Counted from the first letter of the stretch, positions 40,802 through 49,735 are shown. The stretch is DNA of 56,618 nt from a bacterium (GCA_037444125.1 JBBINA010000006.1:1-56618); one strand, 5' to 3'. Made by a program: numbers and translations. Notes: generated by a model not told the origin, from the sequence alone.

Positions 40802-42796
40802 TTGAAAACATTTACAGAAATAATTATCTTAAAACCCCATCCTCAAATTTTAAAAGAGGCTGGATTTTCTATTTCGAAAAAAATTAAATTTGACATCAAT
40901 GCTAGAGAAAAATTACAATTTTGGACTCAAAATAACTGTGTGATGATTAAACAAACACAAAACAACAATACTTTTTGGCAAGAACATACCTTTATCTTAG
41001 AACTTAATCAAAACATCGGTTTCAATGCTTTGCTGAAAAAACTAAACGAACTTGGATATAGAAAAACCTTTTTTGTTAAAACACCATTAGAATATGCGAT
41101 AAGAGGGTCAATAATTGATATCTTCGCCATCAATTATGTTAATCCTATAAGAATAGACTTTTTTGGCAATAAAGTCAACCAAATCAACTTCATAGAAAAA
41201 TCTATCACCGCTAATTTTGACAATTTTGAAGAATATATATCATTTGACCAAAACTTTCTTAAAAGTTTAAAACCGGGCGACTATATTGTACATCTTGATC
41301 ATGGAATTGGCGTATTTCAAGGTTTTGAAACCATAAAAGCAAATAAATATTACGTGATTGGCTACGCCCATAATGATAGACTACTTGTACCATTAGACAA
41401 AATTGACAAACTCACTCCTTATATTGGCTTCACCAAGCCCAAGATATCCCGTTTAGGCGGCTCACTATGGCTAAAATCAAGAAAAAAAGCTAAAGAGAAT
41501 ATCTTAAAGTTTGCCGCCGAGCTTCTAAAACTATACGCTAATAGATCTATAAGCCGCAGGTCTCTTTATCTACCAGATGACAGTCTCTTTAACGATTTTG
41601 AGGCTCAATTTGAATATCCCCTCACTCCAAGCCAACAGAAAACCTTAAACCAAATTAAATATGAACTCGAAAATAATAGTCAACCTATTGAACATATTAT
41701 TTGCGGCGATGTAGGATTTGGTAAAACCGAAATTGCTTTTAGAATTGCCTTTAAAGCCATAGTCAACAATTTCCAAGTTTGTTTAATTGCTCCCACTACA
41801 ATTCTAGCTGACCAACACTTTAATCTAGCTAAAGAAAGATTTAAAAAAATGCCGGTAAATATTGGACTTCTTTCTCGCGCCATATCCAAAAAAAATCAAA
41901 CTCAAACCCTTCAGTTATTAAAAGAAGGAAAAATAGACTTTATTATTGGAACACATCGTCTGCTTTCTAACGATGTTTTCTTTAAAAATCTAGGTCTTTT
42001 AATCATCGATGAAGAGCAAAAATTTGGAGTCAGGCAAAAAGAAAAACTAAAAAAAATGAAAAGCTCTTTAGATGTCCTAGCGCTCTCAGCCACTCCTATA
42101 CCTCGTACTTTGAACTTATGTTTAGCTGGCATAAAAAATATCAGTATTATAAACGACCCGCCACAAGGTCGCCAGCCTATTCAAACTATAATTCAACCTT
42201 TTTCTTGGAAAATAGTCAAAACAGCCATCAACAATGAACTTCGCCGCCAAGGACAAATCTTTTTCTTACATAACCGCATTATCAGTATTATTAAACCCTA
42301 CGCAAAACTCAAACAACTATTTCCAAAAGCTAGAATTGATATTATACATTCAAAACTTCCAGAAAAAGTGTTGCTTAATAAAATCCACCGCTTTAGAAAC
42401 GGAAAAATTGATATTATGCTTGCCACCACTATCATTCAAAATGGTCTTGATCTAAAAAACGCCAATACCTTAATTGTAGAAAATTCTCTGAAGCTTGGCC
42501 TCGCCGATCTTCACCAGTTAAGAGGTCGGATTGGACGTTCTGACAAGAAAGCCTTTGCTTACTTTCTTTACCCAACTAAACAACTAAAAGACAACGCAGT
42601 TTTACGTTTGAATTATCTTAAAGAATACTCCCAACTTGGCGACGGCTATAAATTGGCTCTTAAAGATTTGGAAATAAGAGGCGCCGGTAATATTTTAGGC
42701 AAAGAACAGTCTGGCGTCATTAACCGTATTGGCTTTAATTTATATTACGAAATGCTTAGTCGAGCTATAGAACATTTGAAGAGCACAAATCTTTAA
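40802..42796 (+). CDS. mfd: short transcription-repair coupling factor (Mfd-like)
   Basis: RGSIIDIF, CarD/RID PGDYIVHLDHGIG, GDVGFGKTE, DEEQKFG, SATPIPRT, QLRGRIGR and DLEIRGAGN motifs; 664 aa. Confidence 0.9.
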   Translation: MKTFTEIIILKPHPQILKEAGFSISKKIKFDINAREKLQFWTQNNCVMIKQTQNNNTFWQEHTFILELNQNIGFNALLKKLNELGYRKTFFVKTPLEYAIRGSIIDIFAINYVNPIRIDFFGNKVNQINFIEKSITANFDNFEEYISFDQNFLKSLKPGDYIVHLDHGIGVFQGFETIKANKYYVIGYAHNDRLLVPLDKIDKLTPYIGFTKPKISRLGGSLWLKSRKKAKENILKFAAELLKLYANRSISRRSLYLPDDSLFNDFEAQFEYPLTPSQQKTLNQIKYELENNSQPIEHIICGDVGFGKTEIAFRIAFKAIVNNFQVCLIAPTTILADQHFNLAKERFKKMPVNIGLLSRAISKKNQTQTLQLLKEGKIDFIIGTHRLLSNDVFFKNLGLLIIDEEQKFGVRQKEKLKKMKSSLDVLALSATPIPRTLNLCLAGIKNISIINDPPQGRQPIQTIIQPFSWKIVKTAINNELRRQGQIFFLHNRIISIIKPYAKLKQLFPKARIDIIHSKLPEKVLLNKIHRFRNGKIDIMLATTIIQNGLDLKNANTLIVENSLKLGLADLHQLRGRIGRSDKKAFAYFLYPTKQLKDNAVLRLNYLKEYSQLGDGYKLALKDLEIRGAGNILGKEQSGVINRIGFNLYYEMLSRAIEHLKSTNL

Positions 42797-42982: not shown

Positions 42983-43990
42983 ATGAAAAGATATCAACGG
43001 CTCAGTCTCTCAATCGTCTGTATACTCATAGCTGGCTTATTTTTGACAGTCAGAGCGCAACAGCAGGCAGGCACCCTTATCCCGGAGAAATTGGTTATCG
43101 GGATGGTTCCATCTCGGCCGGCAGATATCCTAAAACCAAATGTCGAAGGTTTAGGACGGCTCATTCTTGACTATGTTCAAAAAAATGGCTTTCCACAAAT
43201 AAAATCTGTGGAAGCAATTATTCCTGCCTCATACACAGCAACAGTTGAAGCGTTAGGCTCGGGCCAAATTCATATTGGACTAATGGGACCAACTTCAGGA
43301 GATCAAGCAAGGCAAAGATATGGAGCAATTGCTATCGTTGCTACCAAACGAAGCGAATCTTTACGCTACCGCGGCCAATTTATGGCACATCTATTTGGAG
43401 ATTTTTCCAACCTTTTTGATGTAGTTGAAGCTGTAAAATCCGGAAAAACAGTCAAATTTGCTTATGGCGGCAGCTCAACATCTACAAGCGGATTTCTATT
43501 CCCGTGTAAAACCCTTAAAGATCTTGGTATACTTCCAGGCGAAAATAGGAACTTTAAAACTTTCCGTCCTGCTGGCGGACATCTTGGAGCAGCTAAAGCA
43601 GTTTACAGAGGCGATGTTGAGATCGGAGTCGGTTTTGAAGATGTAAGGCTAAGTCTCAACACAGAAGAAGTTAAAAAAGAGCTTGGCTGGAAGCCGGGCG
43701 ACCCCGAACCAAGCACGCGAGTTATTGTTATTGGCTACACTGACTGGGTACCCAACGATTTTACTGTTGCCATAAAGGAATTGAAACCAGAGCTGAGGCA
43801 GGTAATTAAAGAAGCTTTCGTGGCAATCATGAAGACTGACGAAGGTAAAAAATTCGCCAAAGGCGCAATCGACGCAACTGATTTTGTAAAAGTTCCAGAA
43901 GATTTTGACCTTGATAAATTACTAGACACTAAAGTCAGACCGGTGGTTAATGAAATTGAACCAAATATCGCAAAATGCGAAAATCAATAA
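42983..43990 (+). CDS. phnD: phosphate/phosphite/phosphonate ABC transporter substrate-binding protein (PhnD/PtxB family)
   Basis: Signal peptide; Y.A.VEAL, STSGFLFP, GGH..A..AV..G.V and PND motifs; AGGAGG SD. Confidence 0.88.
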   Translation: MKRYQRLSLSIVCILIAGLFLTVRAQQQAGTLIPEKLVIGMVPSRPADILKPNVEGLGRLILDYVQKNGFPQIKSVEAIIPASYTATVEALGSGQIHIGLMGPTSGDQARQRYGAIAIVATKRSESLRYRGQFMAHLFGDFSNLFDVVEAVKSGKTVKFAYGGSSTSTSGFLFPCKTLKDLGILPGENRNFKTFRPAGGHLGAAKAVYRGDVEIGVGFEDVRLSLNTEEVKKELGWKPGDPEPSTRVIVIGYTDWVPNDFTVAIKELKPELRQVIKEAFVAIMKTDEGKKFAKGAIDATDFVKVPEDFDLDKLLDTKVRPVVNEIEPNIAKCENQ

Positions 43991-44000
43991 CAAAGTAGCC

Positions 44001-44038
44001 AAAAGGGGAGTACGAATATTTCGTATCTCCCCTTTTTT
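44001..44038 (+). terminator. intercistronic stem-loop + T tract between phnD and phnC
   Basis: AAAAGGGGAG-TACGAA-TAT-TTCGTA-T-CTCCCCTTTTTT. Confidence 0.7.
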
Positions 44039-44051
44039 AAAAGGAGGTAGT

Positions 44052-44816
44052 ATGCTTAAAATAAGAGGACTTAATGTTGTCTATCCAGGCAATATTAAAG
44101 CGCTTGAAAATATTAACCTAGATGTTGACGAGGGAGAATTTATAGTCATAGCTGGCGTTTCAGGTTCAGGCAAATCAACTTTACTTCGCTGCATCAATCG
44201 CTTGGCTGAAAACGACAGAGCCCAAATTTCAGGCGAGATATTATTCAACGGCATAGATGTCCTTAAAGTCTCAAAGAAACAACTAAGAGAAATCAGAACC
44301 CAAATAGGATTTGTCTTTCAAGAATACAACCTTGTCGATCGTATGCCTATCATCACTAATGTTCTTGTAGGAAAAATAGCACATCTAAACACTATAGCGG
44401 CAATTTTCAGACGCTTTGGACGAGATAATATAAACCTTGCTCATCAAGCCCTCATAAAAGTTGGCTTAGGCCCACAACGCCATAACGATCGCGCTAGCAA
44501 CCTTTCAGGAGGCCAAAAACAACGTGTCGGTATCGCTAGAGTGCTCCTGCAAAAGCCAAAACTTATCCTAGCCGACGAACCAGTCGCATCTCTTGACCCA
44601 ATCACTGCCAACCATGTAATGAATCTCTTCAAAAGCATTAACGAAGAACAGAAAATAACAACTATTATTAACCTTCACGACCCTGTCCTTACTTTTAAAT
44701 ATGGTAAACGTATAATTGGCCTTAGACAAGGAAAGATAATTTATGACAAACCGGTTGAAATGATTAATCGCGAAACCTTTGAGGAGGAGATATATGGCAA
44801 GATCAACAATATTTAA
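44052..44816 (+). CDS. phnC: phosphonate-type ABC transporter ATP-binding protein
   Basis: GVSGSGKSTLLRCINRL, LSGGQKQRV.IAR and ILADEPVASLDP motifs; ATG 44052 follows AGGAGG. Confidence 0.92.
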   Translation: MLKIRGLNVVYPGNIKALENINLDVDEGEFIVIAGVSGSGKSTLLRCINRLAENDRAQISGEILFNGIDVLKVSKKQLREIRTQIGFVFQEYNLVDRMPIITNVLVGKIAHLNTIAAIFRRFGRDNINLAHQALIKVGLGPQRHNDRASNLSGGQKQRVGIARVLLQKPKLILADEPVASLDPITANHVMNLFKSINEEQKITTIINLHDPVLTFKYGKRIIGLRQGKIIYDKPVEMINRETFEEEIYGKINNI

Positions 44817-46335
44817 GTGGTTGGGTATTTCTATCATAAGCGCGTTATTCATCTATGCCTCTTACCGGGTAAGAATATGGGATATACCCTACATAGTTAA
44901 AGAAAGTCACCGCTTCTTTAGACTATTAAATGAAATGTGGCCGCCTGACTTTACTAAATTCGGCCTCTTTATAAAACCGCTTTTCGAAACCTTTCAAATG
45001 GCTATTCTCGGAACATTCCTGGGCGCTATAATGTCAATACCCCTAGTCTGTTTTGGGTCCCCTCTTGTTGTGAAATCGCCTCTGATTTATACCCCCACAA
45101 GAGTATTAATGAATCTTATCCGAACGATTCCAGACCTACTCTATGCTATACTTTTTGTCGCAGCTATGGGTTTAGGTCCTATTGCCGGTATCCCAGCTTT
45201 GGCTTTTTTTTCCTGTGCCATTATATCAAAACTTACATCAGAATCTGCCGATAATATTAATAGAAAACAAATTGAAGCCGTAGAATCAAGCGGTGCCAAT
45301 ACTATCAAAATAATATCTTATGGCGTAATTCCGCAAATCTGGTCAGCATTCTTAGATCATACTATCTATGTCTTCGAACTTAATATCAGAGTTTCTACGG
45401 TTATAGCTTATGTAGGCGCTGGCGGAATAGGATCAGTACTTGTCACTGCTCTTGAGTGGTTCCATTACTCTCAAGCATTAGCAGTAATAATCACTATTTT
45501 TAGCCTAGTAGTTATCATTGACTTTGTAGGTAACAAAATTAGAGATGCCGTCCTTCAAGGATATCGATTTCCAAGGAGCTTCAAATATTTGACGATAATT
45601 TTTATTCTAACGCTTGTTATTTGGTCAGGAAGCGCTCTAGAATTCGATTTTCAACGATTTATTAAGGGTATCGGCTATTTTAAGAATCTAGTCTGGGTAA
45701 TGATTTCAGAACCAGAACTACAAATACTTTCGCTGGCATTCGGACAAATGCTTGAATCAATCCAAATTGCGCTTGTAGGTACGGCTATCAGTTTTGTCAT
45801 CTCATTTCCTCTAGGATTACTCGCTTCCCGCAAATTTACCGGAATTCCAGAAAAATTAGCCATCCTTTTTAAGCAAATACCTAATATTATCCGCGCTTTC
45901 CCCGAATTGATTCTAGCTATATTTTTTATCGCTAGCTTCGGTCCAGGAGCCTTGGCTGGAGTATTAGCCGTTGGGTTCCACTCAATAGGTATGTTGGGCA
46001 AACTTAATGCCGAAAGTGTCGAAAAAATTAGAAAGGAACAAATAGAAGCTCTCCAATCAACTGGTGCAAGTGGCCTTAAAATATTCCTCTATGGCATATT
46101 ACCTCAAGCTCTCCCAGAATTTATAGCCAATGCTATTTACAGATTCGAAATCAATGTTCGCGCAGCATCTGTACTAGGCATAGTCGGCGCAGGAGGCATC
46201 GGTATGCTTATTAATGAAGCTATCGGATTATCTAAATGGCGAACGGTCGGCACCTGCTTGTATTTAATTGTTATCACTGTTATGGTAATTGATTATTTAA
46301 GTATGCGCATCCGTAAAAAACTTATTGAAGGGTAA
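44794..46335 (+). CDS. phnE: phosphonate-type ABC permease, two PhnE domains fused
   Basis: Two copies of ET/ES.Q.A..GT, R..P.L, KL..ES and FE.N.R....G.VGAGGIG. Confidence 0.9.
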   Translation: MARSTIFKWLGISIISALFIYASYRVRIWDIPYIVKESHRFFRLLNEMWPPDFTKFGLFIKPLFETFQMAILGTFLGAIMSIPLVCFGSPLVVKSPLIYTPTRVLMNLIRTIPDLLYAILFVAAMGLGPIAGIPALAFFSCAIISKLTSESADNINRKQIEAVESSGANTIKIISYGVIPQIWSAFLDHTIYVFELNIRVSTVIAYVGAGGIGSVLVTALEWFHYSQALAVIITIFSLVVIIDFVGNKIRDAVLQGYRFPRSFKYLTIIFILTLVIWSGSALEFDFQRFIKGIGYFKNLVWVMISEPELQILSLAFGQMLESIQIALVGTAISFVISFPLGLLASRKFTGIPEKLAILFKQIPNIIRAFPELILAIFFIASFGPGALAGVLAVGFHSIGMLGKLNAESVEKIRKEQIEALQSTGASGLKIFLYGILPQALPEFIANAIYRFEINVRAASVLGIVGAGGIGMLINEAIGLSKWRTVGTCLYLIVITVMVIDYLSMRIRKKLIEG

Positions 46336-46339
46336 ATTA

Positions 46340-46370
46340 GCCCCGTCTCTATATATGACGGGGCCCTTTT
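46340..46370 (+). terminator. intrinsic terminator after phnE
   Basis: GCCCCGTC-loop-GACGGGGC then CCTTTT. Confidence 0.7.
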
Positions 46371-46393
46371 ATTTTAAATATCAATTAATAAAA

Positions 46394-46417
46394 TAAGCCC
46401 TAATAATTTAGGGCTTA
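46394..46417 (-). terminator. hairpin at the end of the convergent kinase gene
   Basis: TAAGCCCTAA-TAAT-TTAGGGCTTA; T-rich downstream on the minus strand. Confidence 0.6.
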
Positions 46418-46999
46418 TAAATTTTCATTGTATCTTCTAACGAAAAGGATTTTCGGCTCTTTTTTGTCAAAACTATTATCCAATATCATTAAATTCACAT
46501 TAAGCTCTTTATCGAGAACCCCATAGTCATCGCTATTTAGCAACTTCTTTTTCTTGTCAAGATAAATTAAAAAATCTGCATCTGAACAATTTCTTTGCCA
46601 GCTTAATGCATTAACAAGTCTTTTTTTCACCACCTCTTCTCTACACTTTACATAAATTATCCATACTTCTTTAGAAAATCTTCTTGCTAAATCAATAAAT
46701 TTTTGTCTTATTTTCGTTTCAAGAAAAGTACCATCTATGACTAGATTATTTTTAGAGCGAAGAGTATCTTGGGCTAACATATGCATATGTTCGTAAAGCT
46801 TCTGGTAATATCTTTCATCGTATTTCCTATTCTCGCCAAACAATATATATCCTTCATTATCTGTACTTAACCACAAAGCAAATATTTTAAGCACAATTTT
46901 CCGCGCAATAGTTGATTTGCCAACCCCAGGTAAACCGCAAACAATAATCGTCACGGGCTTTTTTGTTTTTACAAAAAAATCAAACCATTGGGAACTCAT
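46415..46999 (-). CDS. P-loop kinase (AAA_33-like)
   Basis: GLPGVGKST, LSTD, VIDGTF and R...R....SDAD motifs; ATGA-coupled to the HAD gene. Confidence 0.85.
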   Translation of the reverse strand: MSSQWFDFFVKTKKPVTIIVCGLPGVGKSTIARKIVLKIFALWLSTDNEGYILFGENRKYDERYYQKLYEHMHMLAQDTLRSKNNLVIDGTFLETKIRQKFIDLARRFSKEVWIIYVKCREEVVKKRLVNALSWQRNCSDADFLIYLDKKKKLLNSDDYGVLDKELNVNLMILDNSFDKKEPKILFVRRYNENL

Positions 47000-47691
47000 A
47001 ATCCTTTCATCCTTATTTTCTCCAAATCAATATCGCAAAAAGACTCTATAATCCAATCGGCTTTCGCAAGATTTTCTAGTGCAGCAAAGTTATTAGGAAT
47101 CATTATACACCTCATACCAGCTTTTTTGGCTGCCTCAAGCCCATTAATTGCATCTTCAAATACAAGACACCTTGAAGGTTCAACTCCTAAAAGTTCAGCC
47201 GTTTTTAGATATATATTCGGCGCAGGTTTGCCTTTTCCAGCCATTTCGGCAACCACTACGGCTTTAAAAAAATTGCCCAATCTAAACCGCTCAAATACAA
47301 TATCAACCAGTTCCATTGGCGAAGAAGTCGCTAGCCCTAATAAATAACCTTTTTTAAATAAACATTCTATAAGCTCATAAACTCCACTCATAAGAGGAAC
47401 TTCCTGAAATAAATCTTTCACAATTTCTATTCTTTCTTGACGCAAATGCATTATGTCATCTTTTAAATCAAAAAATTTTTTGTAAATTTCGGCGGCTTCC
47501 TGCTGGCTCCTGCCAATCAAAAATGGAACTTGAGTTTGCCTAAAATTAGTCTCTCTAATATTAATACCCCGACGGCGGATTAATTCCTCCTCGCTTGCCC
47601 GCCAAGCAGGTTCGCTTCTAACAATAACCCCATCCATATCAAAAATAACAGCCTCGCTACTCTTGAATAAGTCATATAGAGAGCTCTTCAA
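46996..47691 (-). CDS. HAD superfamily IA phosphatase (beta-PGM/CbbY-like)
   Basis: FDMDGV, ATSS, KPAP.IY and FEDA.NG..AA..AGM motifs; TTG start after AAGGAGG. Confidence 0.9.
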   Translation of the reverse strand: MKSSLYDLFKSSEAVIFDMDGVIVRSEPAWRASEEELIRRRGINIRETNFRQTQVPFLIGRSQQEAAEIYKKFFDLKDDIMHLRQERIEIVKDLFQEVPLMSGVYELIECLFKKGYLLGLATSSPMELVDIVFERFRLGNFFKAVVVAEMAGKGKPAPNIYLKTAELLGVEPSRCLVFEDAINGLEAAKKAGMRCIMIPNNFAALENLAKADWIIESFCDIDLEKIRMKGL

Positions 47692-47819
47692 GATTACCTA
47701 CCTCCTTGAACTTATTTGTGGCATAATAAGAAACCGATAGTATTTTAGCATTATTTTTTATCGAGTCAACAATCAAGACAATAATTATTTTTAGAGCAAT
47801 TTAAAACCCGCCGAATCTT

Positions 47820-48809
47820 TCAGCGGGTAATTTTTTTGTAAATTTTCTCAAGTTCAATCATAAACAAACTCTCAGGAAAAAATTCTTTTTCAACAAAGAA
47901 TCTATCGGTTATTGCTCTTACGCCAAACCATTGTTCAAGTCTATTAACCACCTTATCAACTGTTGCTGGAATAGTAGAGGCGCCGGCAGTAATGCCTATA
48001 ACCTGAAACGCCTCAAGGTCATCTTTACGTAACTCCGATTCATTTAAAACAGGCATTACCCTTATCCCATCATACTGAGCGATTTCAAAAAGTCTCTGAG
48101 TATTAGAAGATCTTCGGATATCACCAACCAAAACTACAACATCAACATTGTGTCCCCGAATCATTTTAATCAAAGCGTTCTGTCGATTTATAGTCGCATA
48201 ACATCTCCCTTGATAATCAGATATTCTCAAATTACTGAATCTCTTCTTAATTGCTTTACTTATCGGAGCCACATCTCTTTGGCTTAAAGTAGTCTGTAAA
48301 ATAATAATAATTTCTTGTGTTCCCGGAAAGAGTTTTATATTAGCAACCTCCTCCTCTATCTCAACGCAAAATACACGCGGATTTTTTAAAGGACCAAGGT
48401 AACCTTTAACTTCTTGGTGATTACGATGACCAATAATCACAATGCTGGCATCTTCTTTATCAAGAGAGTGATGAATTAATTTATGATTCCGCGCCACCAG
48501 AGGACAAGTCAAATCAGCAACAATAACACCTCTTTTCTCTGCTTTTTGCCGCTCTTCTTTGGAACAACCGTGGGCGCTTATAAGATATATTCCCCCTGCA
48601 GGAACTTCATTAATATTATTTACCAAACCAATACGTAGACTTTTCATTAAATCAACAATTTCTTCATTATGCCCAATTGGATAAGCAAAAATTTGCGCTT
48701 TGGGCGACTGATGACGAATATTAGTGACTAAGTATTCCATTCCTTTAAGCGCCCATAAAATACCAGCACATTGACCTTCAATACCAGCCCTTATAATTTT
48801 TCTAACCAT
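47820..48809 (-). CDS. ispH: 4-hydroxy-3-methylbut-2-enyl diphosphate reductase
   Basis: Three Fe-S Cys (GQCAG, DLTCPLV, RCYAT.NRQ), HN, SAHG, GH..H.EV.G, QTTLS, SSNT and GITAGAST. Confidence 0.92.
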   Translation of the reverse strand: MVRKIIRAGIEGQCAGILWALKGMEYLVTNIRHQSPKAQIFAYPIGHNEEIVDLMKSLRIGLVNNINEVPAGGIYLISAHGCSKEERQKAEKRGVIVADLTCPLVARNHKLIHHSLDKEDASIVIIGHRNHQEVKGYLGPLKNPRVFCVEIEEEVANIKLFPGTQEIIIILQTTLSQRDVAPISKAIKKRFSNLRISDYQGRCYATINRQNALIKMIRGHNVDVVVLVGDIRRSSNTQRLFEIAQYDGIRVMPVLNESELRKDDLEAFQVIGITAGASTIPATVDKVVNRLEQWFGVRAITDRFFVEKEFFPESLFMIELEKIYKKITR

Positions 48810-49043
48810 AAGCTAAACCTCCTTTTTTTAGGGTACTCTAAATAACATAATAACATAAAATTTATTTTCGTTGGCTAACTATGAAGCTTAGAAAATTTGA
48901 CTAGCTTGATTTTACGATCGGCAAATCCCAAGATTAAATAATAAATAAAATGGAAGAAAAACGAGAATCACATAATTTACCTTAAAACAAACGGCTATAA
49001 TTTTCAATTCTCGAAGTTTTAGTCAAAGAAAATTAATCTTATA

Positions 49044-49610
49044 CTATTTAACCTTTGATAGGGCAGTATATTTTTTATAAAGTTGTTGAAATTTATGATT
49101 CTGGGATAAAAATTGCGCCTCCTCAATACACCATTCTGAATACTTGCCTGGATTATCTTTAATATCTTGCAAAAAATCTTGCCAACCACGCCACTCAATT
49201 GCTTCAACCTCCTGCGGGTTTGGACTGGCTAATTCTTTTGTAAATCCAACCAACACCGGGCACATTTCATTTTCTACCACACCGTCTCTTTCAAATCTAT
49301 AACGATAGTTAGGTAAAATCACAAAAAGTTTAACTTTCTTGAAACCAAGCTCAAAAGTTAACCTTCGTTTAGCCGCAGAAATTGTTTTTTCTCCAGGCGC
49401 CGGATGACCACAACAACTATTAGACCAAGCTAGCGGCCAGGTTTTTTTAAAACGACTACGTTGTTGCAACAACAAATCGCCCTTTTGATTAAATAAAAAA
49501 ACAGAAAACCCTCGGTGAAGCGGAGTATTGGAATAATGAACCTCGCTTTTTAAAGCTCGGCCAATAGGTTTGTTTCTTTTATTAACCAAAACTACAAATT
49601 CTTCAGCCAT
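49044..49610 (-). CDS. idi: type 1 isopentenyl-diphosphate delta-isomerase
   Basis: LHRGFSVFLFN, LLLQQRS, WSNSCCGHP, ENEMCPV and EV....W motifs. Confidence 0.93.
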   Translation of the reverse strand: MAEEFVVLVNKRNKPIGRALKSEVHYSNTPLHRGFSVFLFNQKGDLLLQQRSRFKKTWPLAWSNSCCGHPAPGEKTISAAKRRLTFELGFKKVKLFVILPNYRYRFERDGVVENEMCPVLVGFTKELASPNPQEVEAIEWRGWQDFLQDIKDNPGKYSEWCIEEAQFLSQNHKFQQLYKKYTALSKVK

Positions 49611-49735
49611 AATTTTTATTGATACTTATAAATTTAAAATTTTATAACAAATTATACTAAACGCAAAAAATTAAATACAACAGACTTTAATAATCTGTTG
49701 CTCAAACCTAGGCTAACAACAAAATACAAATTTCA

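Follow-up and report, generated by a model that had tools for sequence, protein, structure and literature searches.

The 6.6-kb stretch between positions 42,983 and 49,610 of the window (the whole piece of DNA analysed, GCA_037444125.1 JBBINA010000006.1:1-56618, 56,618 nt) is best read, with somewhat better than even confidence on our part, as a juxtaposition of separately transcribed units and not as one module, its phn genes serving phosphorus acquisition and its ispH and idi genes being the remnant of a pathway. The genome holding the window (G000, from a class sample of 201 genomes) belongs to an ultra-small bacterium with 0.80 Mb of DNA in 19 contigs, a completeness of 98.39% and a mean GC content of 33.7%. 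The initial annotation had named phnD, phnC, phnE, HAD, kinase, ispH and idi genes in this stretch, and profile searches recovered all of them where it had placed them. It had also suspected a reduced, CPR-like cell, which agrees with a 0.80-Mb genome that encodes neither an upstream MEP nor a mevalonate pathway, and had allowed that the clustering could be incidental, which is now the most likely explanation. The gene families of the cluster are ordinary, and the interesting part is the truncated pathway itself. Judged by its gene content, the bacterium probably depends on a late isoprenoid intermediate made by other cells.

The ispH gene (47820..48809, minus strand) encodes an HMBPP reductase of a divergent lineage, which exceeds the TIGR00216 cut-off by a narrow margin (193.8 bits; cut-off 187.85) and also matches PF02401 (197.6 bits). 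Alignment to E. coli IspH confirmed that its motifs are intact, as had been claimed: the three [4Fe-4S] cysteines, the catalytic Glu, and the diphosphate-binding His, Ser and Asn residues are all kept. The conserved positions are those which we take to be, in E. coli numbering, H41, H74, H124, E126, T167, S225-S226-N227 and S269. In the IspH tree, the sequence forms a clade with that of G171 and two relatives (support 100/99). The idi gene (49044..49610, minus strand) encodes a type-1 isopentenyl-diphosphate isomerase (NF002995, 204 bits; cut-off 127) in which the Cys/His and Glu motifs are conserved on alignment to a solved Idi, and it shares 54% identity with the idi of G171, which adjoins ispH there. 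Beyond these two, the window holds no further MEP or mevalonate gene, in agreement with the earlier account. Elsewhere in the genome, ispG is located on contig C1 (399.5 bits), with all catalytic residues kept in the alignment, and uppS on contig C2, adjoining mraZ and rsmH. IspG, IspH and Idi thus look catalytically competent. Crude motif scans of the genome revealed no Fe-S scaffold, ferredoxin or flavodoxin, and a search of it for the trans-prenyl synthase that would provide the usual UppS primer also gave none.

Genome-wide searches for Dxr, IspF, the GHMP kinases (IspE, MVK, PMK and MDD) and HMG-CoA reductase gave no candidates, while every family sought was recovered in control reference genomes. 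The Dxs-like matches correspond to a split transketolase and the IspD-like matches to sugar-1-phosphate nucleotidyltransferases, and the lone AA_kinase, considered as a candidate IPK, is PyrH-like. Compared with the canonical MEP pathway, the genome shares IspG, IspH and Idi, whereas Dxs, Dxr, IspD, IspE and IspF were not found. The earlier supposition that no upstream pathway exists holds for Dxs to IspF and for the mevalonate genes, but not for IspG. Likewise, the suggestion that HMBPP is scavenged stands in part: intact terminal enzymes without upstream or mevalonate genes imply that a late precursor is needed from outside, but the presence of IspG means that entry could come as early as MEcPP and not only at HMBPP. 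MEcPP is exported, and accumulates under stress.

The truncation is not confined to this genome. IspH was detected in 17 of the 201 class genomes, leaving 184 without it; IspG was above cut-off in 10/201 and Dxr in 3/201. Among the 17 genomes with IspH, IspF was found in three and GHMP kinases in four, all of one family. Five genomes, G000, G002, G014, G166 and G171 (92-100% complete), have both IspG and IspH but gave no hit for Dxr, IspF or the GHMP kinases; the four other than G000 belong to three other families. Seven genomes possess IspH without IspG or anything upstream. Counted by family, the full pathway occurs in one, IspG with IspH in four, and IspH alone in three. In G014 and G166, polyprenyl synthase and uppS genes flank ispG. 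In one of the IspH-only families the enzyme branches with non-CPR sequences in the tree, a placement that speaks for acquisition and not for decay.

[quoted passage not shown] Like G000, these organisms have no de novo IPP synthesis and depend on other cells, but the partial pathways described in that section retain early steps (either everything up to the final enzymes or just IspD), whereas G000 keeps the terminal ones; the same section mentions neither a terminal-steps-only pattern nor CPR bacteria. A type-1 Idi is the norm in CPR bacteria, and adjacency of IPK and idi has been reported (Hoshino and Gaucher 2018, PMC6107057). This adjacency recurs in G171, there beside ispH, but the reported pair serves a mevalonate pathway, whereas both G000 and G171 are without a GHMP kinase and G000 is also without an IPK. 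In the literature searched, we found no description of the genotype in which intact IspG, IspH, Idi and UppS occur without any earlier enzyme, a clean genotype that recurs in several high-quality ultra-small genomes. Should MEcPP or HMBPP from other cells indeed feed these enzymes, the metabolic dependency would be of a new kind; it would bear on how ultra-small cells build their cell-wall lipid carrier, and the hypothesis singles out two defined metabolites, MEcPP and HMBPP, for CPR-host co-cultures.

The remaining part of the stretch begins with an ABC importer of the PhnT family (TC 3.A.1.9), whose phnD-type, phnC and phnE genes are encoded together and match the respective profiles. The phnD-type substrate-binding protein (42983..43990, plus strand) has an N-terminal membrane-anchor helix and matches PF12974 (111 bits), and its TIGR01098 score is slightly below the cut-off (104.7 bits; cut-off 112). 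The phnC ATPase gene (44052..44816, plus strand; TIGR02315, 292 bits, cut-off 266) lies in an ORF that opens at 43950; the TIGR02315 match begins at ORF residue 35, and the ATG at 44052, downstream of AAGGAGG, is the likely true start. The gap between phnD and phnC contains an imperfect GC-rich hairpin with a T-run (44005..44038, plus strand), read from the sequence and absent from the terminator-scan list, which is a possible intra-operon attenuator or stabiliser. The permease (44779..46335, plus strand) is a fused double phnE in a single gene, matched by TIGR01097 in two stretches (496 bits; cut-off 217). A tblastn search of the genome gave no PhnE paralogue, and besides PhnCDE we found no binding-protein-dependent importer with a permease of this type there.

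The AF2 model of the binding protein (pLDDT 86) matched PtxB, PhnD, HtxB, ArrX and GpxB in Foldseek, and the best PDB match of its profile is E. coli PhnD (55.6 bits). In the profile alignment with the latter, the posterior is high for the matches to the STS motif, His157, Tyr47, Tyr93 and Asp205 and moderate for the match to Glu177. The residues of the P-oxyanion head (Ser-Thr-Ser, His and two Tyr) are therefore conserved, their roles being in part those which we presume them to have. For the other part, the roles follow PMC12718374, in which the Glu177/Asp205 pair of E. coli PhnD is also described as binding the NH3+ of 2-aminoethylphosphonate. The window protein keeps the Asp, and probably also the Glu, that contacts this amine, so the tail pocket would be a poor fit for a second phosphate of the ligand. 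In comparison with the E. coli PhnCDE system (TC 3.A.1.9.1; PDB 3P7I, PhnD with 2-aminoethylphosphonate), the three-component architecture and the families are the same, but the similarity is distant, two PhnE copies are fused in the permease, and the operon stands in a 0.8-Mb CPR genome after an apparent transfer, without adjacent C-P lyase or catabolic genes: neither C-P lyase, PhnW/PhnX, PtxD nor HtxA is encoded among the neighbouring genes in the window. The PhnT family can import organophosphate esters, as exemplified by the glycerol-1/3-phosphate importer GpxB, in which an Arg223/Thr247 pair is said to hold the glycerol hydroxyls (PMC12718374). GpxB (PDB 9LF9) is a PhnT-family protein like that of the window but not its closest relative, ranking 34th among the fold neighbours of the model, and the window protein keeps the PhnD-type acidic pair instead. 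Larger phosphorylated ligands may nevertheless be accommodated, since GpxB (G1P/G3P) and 5ub7, a fold neighbour solved with ATP, are among its kin.

The 12 phn loci closest to this operon are from Bipolaricaulota, Fraserbacteria and Thermotogae MAGs (PhnD 59-68%, PhnC 64-69% and PhnE 55-62% identity), whereas the phn genes of a class-mate are merely 41-53% identical. The GC content of the phn block is 40.3% against the genome mean of 33.7%, a value that only 14 of 1486 equally long stretches reach. The operon looks horizontally acquired, and apparently recently. A search for PstS in the genome gave none, and its Pit gene is broken, extending over three frames with in-frame stops; Pit is above cut-off in nine class genomes and only this copy is broken. 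PhnCDE is thus the sole intact recognised phosphorus-uptake system of the cell, and for that reason most likely supplies its phosphorus, the Phn operon having come in while Pit decayed. Recognised phosphate transporters are missing from most of this class.

Between the importer and ispH, two genes on the minus strand encode a HAD-IA (beta-PGM/HxpB-like) phosphatase (46996..47691; PF13419, 105.8 bits), with all catalytic motifs present (DMDG, ATSS, GKGKP and FEDA), and an AAA_33/KTI12-like P-loop kinase (46415..46999; PF13671, 74.7 bits) with the Walker A motif GLPGVGKST. The kinase start and the HAD stop share 4 nt, making this a translationally coupled pair. By its profile matches the phosphatase is a beta-PGM-family hydrolase; assignment as the hexitol phosphatase HxpB was rejected (138.3 bits; cut-off 191), and it scores 40 bits against a phosphonatase cut-off of 220. 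A polynucleotide kinase-phosphatase was rejected as well, the kinase scoring 26.6 bits against a Pnkp cut-off of 750 and its partner matching capped HAD-IA families only. The kinase fold is generic (TM ~0.6 to the PFKFB kinase domain, gluconokinase, PSTK and Pnkp). A beta-PGM/HxpB-like HAD is encoded downstream of phnE in 12/75 PhnD-related loci and, in a class-mate, convergently with phnE; none of the 12 most similar phn loci has such a neighbour. Phosphatases of this type recur beside PhnT transporters in other phyla, and the HAD of the window may act on the imported compound; an ester ligand would fit this recurrence.

A bidirectional terminator-like hairpin (46393..46418, both strands) separates the convergent phnE and kinase genes, and the highest-scoring promoter-like sequence, TTGACT-16-TAAAAT with a TG (10/12 matches), lies 5' of the HAD gene (47742..47769, minus strand). 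The terminator scan that gave this hairpin gave two more on the minus strand, one of 10 pairs (6 GC) at the 3' end of ispH (47806..47828) and one in the fba/idi gap (49677..49701). The phn, HAD-kinase and ispH/idi genes seem to form distinct transcription units. Shuffled versions of the region contain at least as many promoter-like and terminator-like sites.

In the proposed explanation, phnD-phnC-phnE~E would be a horizontally acquired PhnT importer for a small phosphorus compound, either phosphate or a phosphonate or organophosphate whose tail is polar or cationic, and the HAD-IA phosphatase may free phosphate from the imported compound. The ispH and idi genes, together with ispG and uppS, would be the surviving end of an MEP pathway whose first five enzymes are gone. 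These terminal enzymes could act only on MEcPP, HMBPP or IPP/DMAPP from other cells, and UppS would use the C5 units in making the lipid carrier of the cell wall. We see no sign that the intermediate enters through the Phn system.

A bolder extension, to which we give roughly one chance in a handful, is that some CPR bacteria take up MEcPP, HMBPP or C5 monophosphates that neighbours or hosts release and finish them with terminal enzymes only, and that the kinase beside ispH-idi is a non-homologous isoprenyl-monophosphate kinase, a place filled by IPK in G171 and in G000 by the AAA_33 kinase together with the HAD. The terminal enzymes (IspG, IspH and Idi; in G171 also IPK) would have been retained or newly acquired, and the stepwise pattern across the class would reflect a top-down erosion of the pathway, sustained by uptake. 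Somewhat less credible to us is that the terminal enzymes are relics, or have non-isoprenogenic roles such as the sensing or removal of MEcPP or HMBPP from a neighbour, with the lipid carrier taken up ready-made. The 184 class genomes that must manage without IspH, the missing synthase for the UppS primer, and the crude motif scans, which revealed no Fe-S scaffold or low-potential electron carrier, are consistent with such roles, which section 16 of the 2026 review argues for partial MEP pathways (PMC13001223); yet IspH, Idi and IspG have lost none of their catalytic residues, UppS is encoded, ispG lies between polyprenyl synthase and uppS in G014 and G166, and one IspH-only family seems to have acquired its IspH.

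It is doubtful that the kinase, with or without the HAD, is a non-homologous stand-in for an IPK, acting on IP, DMAP or HMBP that enter otherwise than through Phn. The idea draws on G171, the closest relative of this idi-ispH pair and a member of the same divergent IspH clade, in which a genuine IPK (153 bits; cut-off 120) converges on ispH-idi; G000 is without an IPK, yet has its kinase at the equivalent place. A transporter fragment in G171 converges on ispH as well, so that the layout echoes that of the window. Moreover, a kinase homologue (52% identity) and an IspH homologue (61%) each have 49,110 bp as the longest contig, so that the two genes may be linked in a relative too, a linkage deduced from equal contig sizes and nothing else. 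Against this reading, the kinase fold is generic, the HAD is recurrently linked to phn operons, and a terminator-like hairpin and a promoter-like site stand between ispH and the HAD-kinase pair. In addition, no phnD, phnE, HAD or kinase homologue was found around the 16 other ispH loci of the class (up to 20 kb covered). The proposal of the initial annotation that the pair adjusts phosphorylation was not supported. Two phnC matches near ispH (L013 and L022; 22-37% identity) are generic ABC ATPases.

We think it improbable that an upstream pathway escaped detection because its genes lie in DNA missing from the assembly or encode enzymes of unrelated families. The assembly is in 19 contigs, and G010 (80% complete) has IspD and IspF without a Dxr or IspE match, as can happen in an incomplete genome; but at 98.39% completeness five dispersed genes would all need to be missing, the same pattern is seen in four genomes (92-100% complete) of three other families, and the controls recovered each family in the reference genomes.

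Recurrence of the phn-HAD-kinase-ispH synteny had been set beforehand as a test of the claim that PhnCDE imports isoprenoid precursors. A PhnD-family match was found in 0/16 other IspH-bearing class genomes and IspH in 0/15 other PhnD-bearing ones, the two sets meeting in G000 alone, and ispH, idi, ispG or the kinase lay within 10 kb of 0/75 PhnD-related loci; the claim fails on a phn operon that is foreign-looking and unlinked to ispH, and on units that are apparently separate. That PhnDCE imports host HMBPP, MEcPP or prenyl phosphates, that the HAD and kinase reset their phosphorylation, and that IspH and Idi finish IPP/DMAPP is accordingly the least probable explanation of all, for although the terminal enzymes are intact and the upstream pathway absent, the genome has no other importer of this kind, PhnT-family proteins bind organophosphates bigger than phosphite, and the G171 layout (transporter fragment, IPK, ispH, idi) is analogous, the acidic tail pocket suits a second phosphate poorly, and the operon is 55-69% identical to Bipolaricaulota-type ones located beside genes for an amidase, a Zn transporter and a PhoU-domain protein.

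The genome from which the stretch derives (G000, a JBBINA01 bacterium of the Minisyncoccia; 801,662 bp, 19 contigs, 98.39% complete) was searched in all six frames with HMMs for the enzymes of isoprenoid biosynthesis, with positive controls in reference genomes for each. No match was obtained in G000 to Dxr, IspF, HMG-CoA reductase, the trans-polyprenyl synthases (PF00348) or GHMP kinases of any kind, the last of which rules out both IspE and the mevalonate kinases. The candidates for Dxs, located on contig C3, were sub-threshold; they are the halves of a split transketolase, each scoring about 300 bits on the transketolase model versus 195 and 51 bits on Dxs. These two separate subunits are encoded at G000:C3:53283-55154 (L001:1486-3356), adjoining the gene of a ribokinase-family sugar kinase. 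The weak matches to IspD are sugar-1-phosphate nucleotidyltransferases, while the only gene with an amino-acid-kinase fold encodes a relative of the archaeal-type UMP kinase and not isopentenyl phosphate kinase. IspG is present on contig C1 (6472-7563; 399.5 bits) with the motifs CPTCG and GCVVNGPGE, and the whole-genome check for uppS suggested in the initial annotation located this gene on contig C2 (17878-18618), adjoining mraZ and rsmH. By these searches, G000 has IspG, IspH, Idi and UppS, and nothing able to make MEcPP.

The premise of a biosynthetically reduced cell without the upstream pathway was thus borne out by these searches, and at the level of the whole genome the predicted absence is both supported and sharpened. 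The related proposal that a late intermediate enters from outside agrees with the presence of terminal enzymes only, but HMBPP is not the earliest possible point of entry: because IspG exists in G000, the earliest usable precursor would be MEcPP. With UppS present and no trans-polyprenyl synthase found, the allylic primer of UppS may be DMAPP, or FPP supplied from outside. Crude regular-expression scans of G000 for Fe-S and electron-carrier motifs gave no match; one class-V aminotransferase resembling cysteine desulfurase is encoded at C5:2590-3792, with no scaffold gene adjacent. Upstream of ispG on contig C1 (3854-8269, L030), and on the same strand, are genes for a DrrA-type ABC ATPase and an ABC_tran_2 membrane protein of 557 aa, and a PlsC-like acyltransferase gene follows ispG. 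This transporter was considered and rejected, the DrrA-type ATPase and ABC_tran_2 protein being probably an exporter; none of the other genomes examined has this arrangement at its ispG.

The order is represented by G000 alone; the comparison drew on 200 further genomes sampled evenly from the class (201 in all), in which counts are those of a sample, related genomes are not independent, and absence means not found in those searched. IspH is present in 17 of the 201 genomes (15 over cut-off) and IspG over cut-off in 10, while Dxr was found in only three, all belonging to one family (f60). Among the 17 genomes bearing IspH, three have IspF and four have GHMP kinases, all four in the same family f60. 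In five genomes from four families (G000, G002, G014, G166 and G171; 92-100% complete) IspG and IspH occur together, while Dxr, IspF and GHMP kinases gave no match, and seven others from three families (G007, G051, G052, G084, G055, G116 and G188) have IspH alone. Genome G010 (80% complete), in which IspD, IspF, IspG and IspH were found, was left out of both groups. A polyprenyl synthase gene and uppS flank ispG in G014 and G166, where it therefore clearly serves isoprenoid synthesis. The conserved neighbours of ispG and ispH in the terminal-only genomes are central-carbon genes, tRNA synthetases and response regulators, and no transporter, kinase or phosphatase common to these surroundings was found. 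In G002 (L008:3084-13941) ispG and ispH are surrounded by central-carbon genes, with glpX FBPase, fba and a small ORF on one side and pieces of an ADP-forming acetyl-CoA synthetase and a PEP-utilising enzyme on the other. An fba gene adjoins isoprenoid genes in G000 too, and does so more loosely in G156.

Literature searches on isoprenoid synthesis in CPR bacteria, with Patescibacteria, Parcubacteria and Saccharibacteria named, returned no description of terminal-only MEP gene sets in this group; the supplements of PMC6107057, on the distribution of the MEP pathway in CPR, and of PMC13001223 may list such sets. The latter, a 2026 review, describes in its section 16 partial pathways retaining upstream steps as well as the host-dependent Rickettsia and Orientia; the pattern of G000 is not among the cases of that section.

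A tree of IspH (32 rows, midpoint root, limited sampling) places the G000 sequence in a long-branched clade with that of G171 and two relatives sharing 65% and 61% identity (support 100/99). A second clade comprises 11 class-mates, the full-pathway family among them. The three IspH-only genomes of family f51 (G055, G116 and G188; L013, L017 and L022) are nested in non-CPR sequences, Planctomycetota-like ones among them (96/94); this tree therefore suggests that they acquired a lone ispH horizontally. An archaeal-type pyrH is located immediately upstream of ispH there; the AA_kinase beside ispH in this family is an archaeal-type UMP kinase and not an isopentenyl phosphate kinase. The related-locus search found no IspH relatives in metagenome contigs.

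In the stretch itself, at 42983-49610 of the 56.6-kb contig C6, all of which is the window, ORFs and family matches agree with the gene set of the initial annotation. From 42983 onward the plus strand encodes a PhnD-type binding protein, PhnC and one fused double PhnE. On the opposite strand are an AAA_33 P-loop kinase and a HAD-IA phosphatase, the kinase start overlapping the HAD stop by 4 nt, and ispH and a type-1 idi, which extend up to 49610; the class II fructose-bisphosphate aldolase gene (fba) lies upstream of idi. Aligned with that of E. coli, the IspH keeps all three cysteines of the cluster, together with the positions for catalysis and for diphosphate binding. Idi retains its Cys/His and Glu motifs, and all four HAD motifs are present in the phosphatase.

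These genes had been proposed to form a module in which the Phn importer and the HAD/kinase pair feed IspH with HMBPP or prenyl phosphates. Such a module is unsupported, as its synteny does not recur among either the 16 other IspH genomes or 75 PhnD-related loci. PF12974 is found in 16 of the 201 class genomes (12 over cut-off), and PhnD and IspH coincide in G000 only (0/16 other IspH genomes; 0/15 other PhnD genomes). When the window proteins were compared by tblastn with the surroundings of ispH (up to 20 kb) in each of the other 16 genomes, PhnD, PhnE, the HAD protein and the kinase gave no match. PhnC matched in L013 and L022 only (22-37% identity), where the proteins are generic ABC ATPases; idi was found in G171 only, and ispG adjoins ispH in 4/16. 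The one true counterpart of the phn operon in the class belongs to G121 (L040; PhnD 41%, PhnC 53% and fused PhnE 47% identity), in which no IspH was found. An alignment scan of species-representative genomes for PhnD yielded the 75 loci, none of which has ispH, idi, ispG, fba or the kinase gene within 10 kb, although many are on short contigs and n=75 overstates what was visible. The possibility, already raised in the initial annotation, that the clustering is incidental is now its best reading: an acquired phosphorus-uptake operon and the remnant of an MEP pathway would be neighbours by chance.

The phn operon is read as horizontally acquired on grounds of both similarity and composition. The 12 closest of the 75 loci come from MAGs of Bipolaricaulota, Fraserbacteria and Thermotogae, with identities (PhnD 59-68%, PhnC 64-69%, PhnE 55-62%) far above those to the class-mate G121, and the top database match, 88% identical, lies on a 2.6-kb contig of an unrelated MAG. 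The GC content of the block is 40.3% versus a genome mean of 33.7%, a value reached by only 14 of 1486 windows of the same length. Flanking the closest loci are a divergent amidase (12/14), a Zur-ZnuABC set, a PhoU-domain protein and a LiaX-like protein.

The importer is more likely an imported phosphorus-uptake system, to judge from gene content and predicted structure. PstS gave no match in G000, and the Pit/PHO4 gene (G000:C1:78601-79466; L024-L026) is broken, being spread over three frames and having in-frame TAG and TAA codons, while the frames are intact in the other eight class genomes with Pit over cut-off. No PhnE paralogue was found in G000, and its only other ABC ATPases, about five, look like MacB/FtsX-type and DrrA-type systems when judged by their neighbours. 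In the class sample, PstS is found in three genomes and Pit over cut-off in nine; at least 174 of the 201 have none of PstS, Pit and PhnD-family proteins. For the binding protein, the AF2 model (pLDDT 86) matches the folds of PtxB, PhnD, HtxB, ArrX and AioX, as well as those of XAC2383 and GpxB, whose solved structures contain ATP and glycerol-1-phosphate, respectively. A profile built from 15 family members has its best match in E. coli PhnD (55.6 bits), with the head-binding Ser-Thr-Ser, His157, Tyr47 and Tyr93 matched, Asp205 at high and Glu177 at moderate posterior. According to PMC12718374, the Glu177/Asp205 pair binds the ammonium group of 2-aminoethylphosphonate, phosphite binders have a tyrosine cap, and GpxB demonstrates that the PhnT family can import phosphate esters. 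A ligand with a cationic or polar tail would suit the predicted acidic pocket, and a second phosphate would fit it poorly. As a candidate partner, the HAD protein fits the importer better than ispH because it recurs beside phnE: in 12 of the 75 loci, from Cloacimonadota and Armatimonadota, phnE is followed by a beta-PGM/HxpB-like HAD gene of the same orientation, and one converges on phnE in G121. It is missing from the 12 closest phn operons.

Within the class sample G171 has the IspH and the Idi (54% identity) most similar to those of G000, and its layout keeps a weaker form of the importer or salvage idea alive. There (L020:7469-12630) an MFS fragment, an unassigned ORF and a genuine isopentenyl phosphate kinase (153 bits versus a cut-off of 120) converge on ispH-idi, and on the far side of idi are a divergent IMPase-family (inositol-monophosphatase family) phosphatase and a Nudix gene. 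GHMP kinases, Dxr and IspF were all unmatched in G171, which combines this kinase with terminal MEP genes and thus keeps the last steps of both routes. Its idi ORF is 312 aa long; if the GTG codon is the true start, about 125 of these residues are an N-terminal addition. By a thin analogy, a kinase beside ispH-idi in two unrelated folds would have the look of a C5-monophosphate salvage step. Only four homologues of the window kinase were found; it falls into generic AAA_33/KTI12 clusters of the protein atlas, and its fold search returned generic P-loop kinases. The longest contig is 49,110 bp for both a 52%-identical kinase homologue and a 61%-identical IspH homologue, and for no PhnD homologue; these equal values are the one hint that the kinase travels with ispH while phn does not.

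The arrangement of putative signals agrees with separate transcription units, although the counts of promoter- and terminator-like sites are not above those in shuffled sequences and are supportive only. The 3' end of ispH has a hairpin of 10 pairs (47828-47806), and the best promoter-like site in the region is at 47769-47742, immediately 5' of the HAD gene. Between phnE and the kinase gene there is a bidirectional hairpin (46393-46418), and between fba and idi one more hairpin. Within the phn operon, an imperfect GC-rich hairpin followed by TTTTTT (44005-44038) is located between phnD and phnC, just 5' of the phnC ribosome-binding site; the probable phnC start is the ATG at 44052, preceded by AAGGAGG. 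This hairpin may be an intra-operon attenuator or an mRNA stabiliser favouring the binding protein. Upstream of phnD is a short mfd (40802-42796; 664 aa), which scores 740 bits on TIGR00580 versus a cut-off of 800 and covers positions 307-821 of the 907 in the model; its predicted product is a shortened transcription-repair coupling factor.
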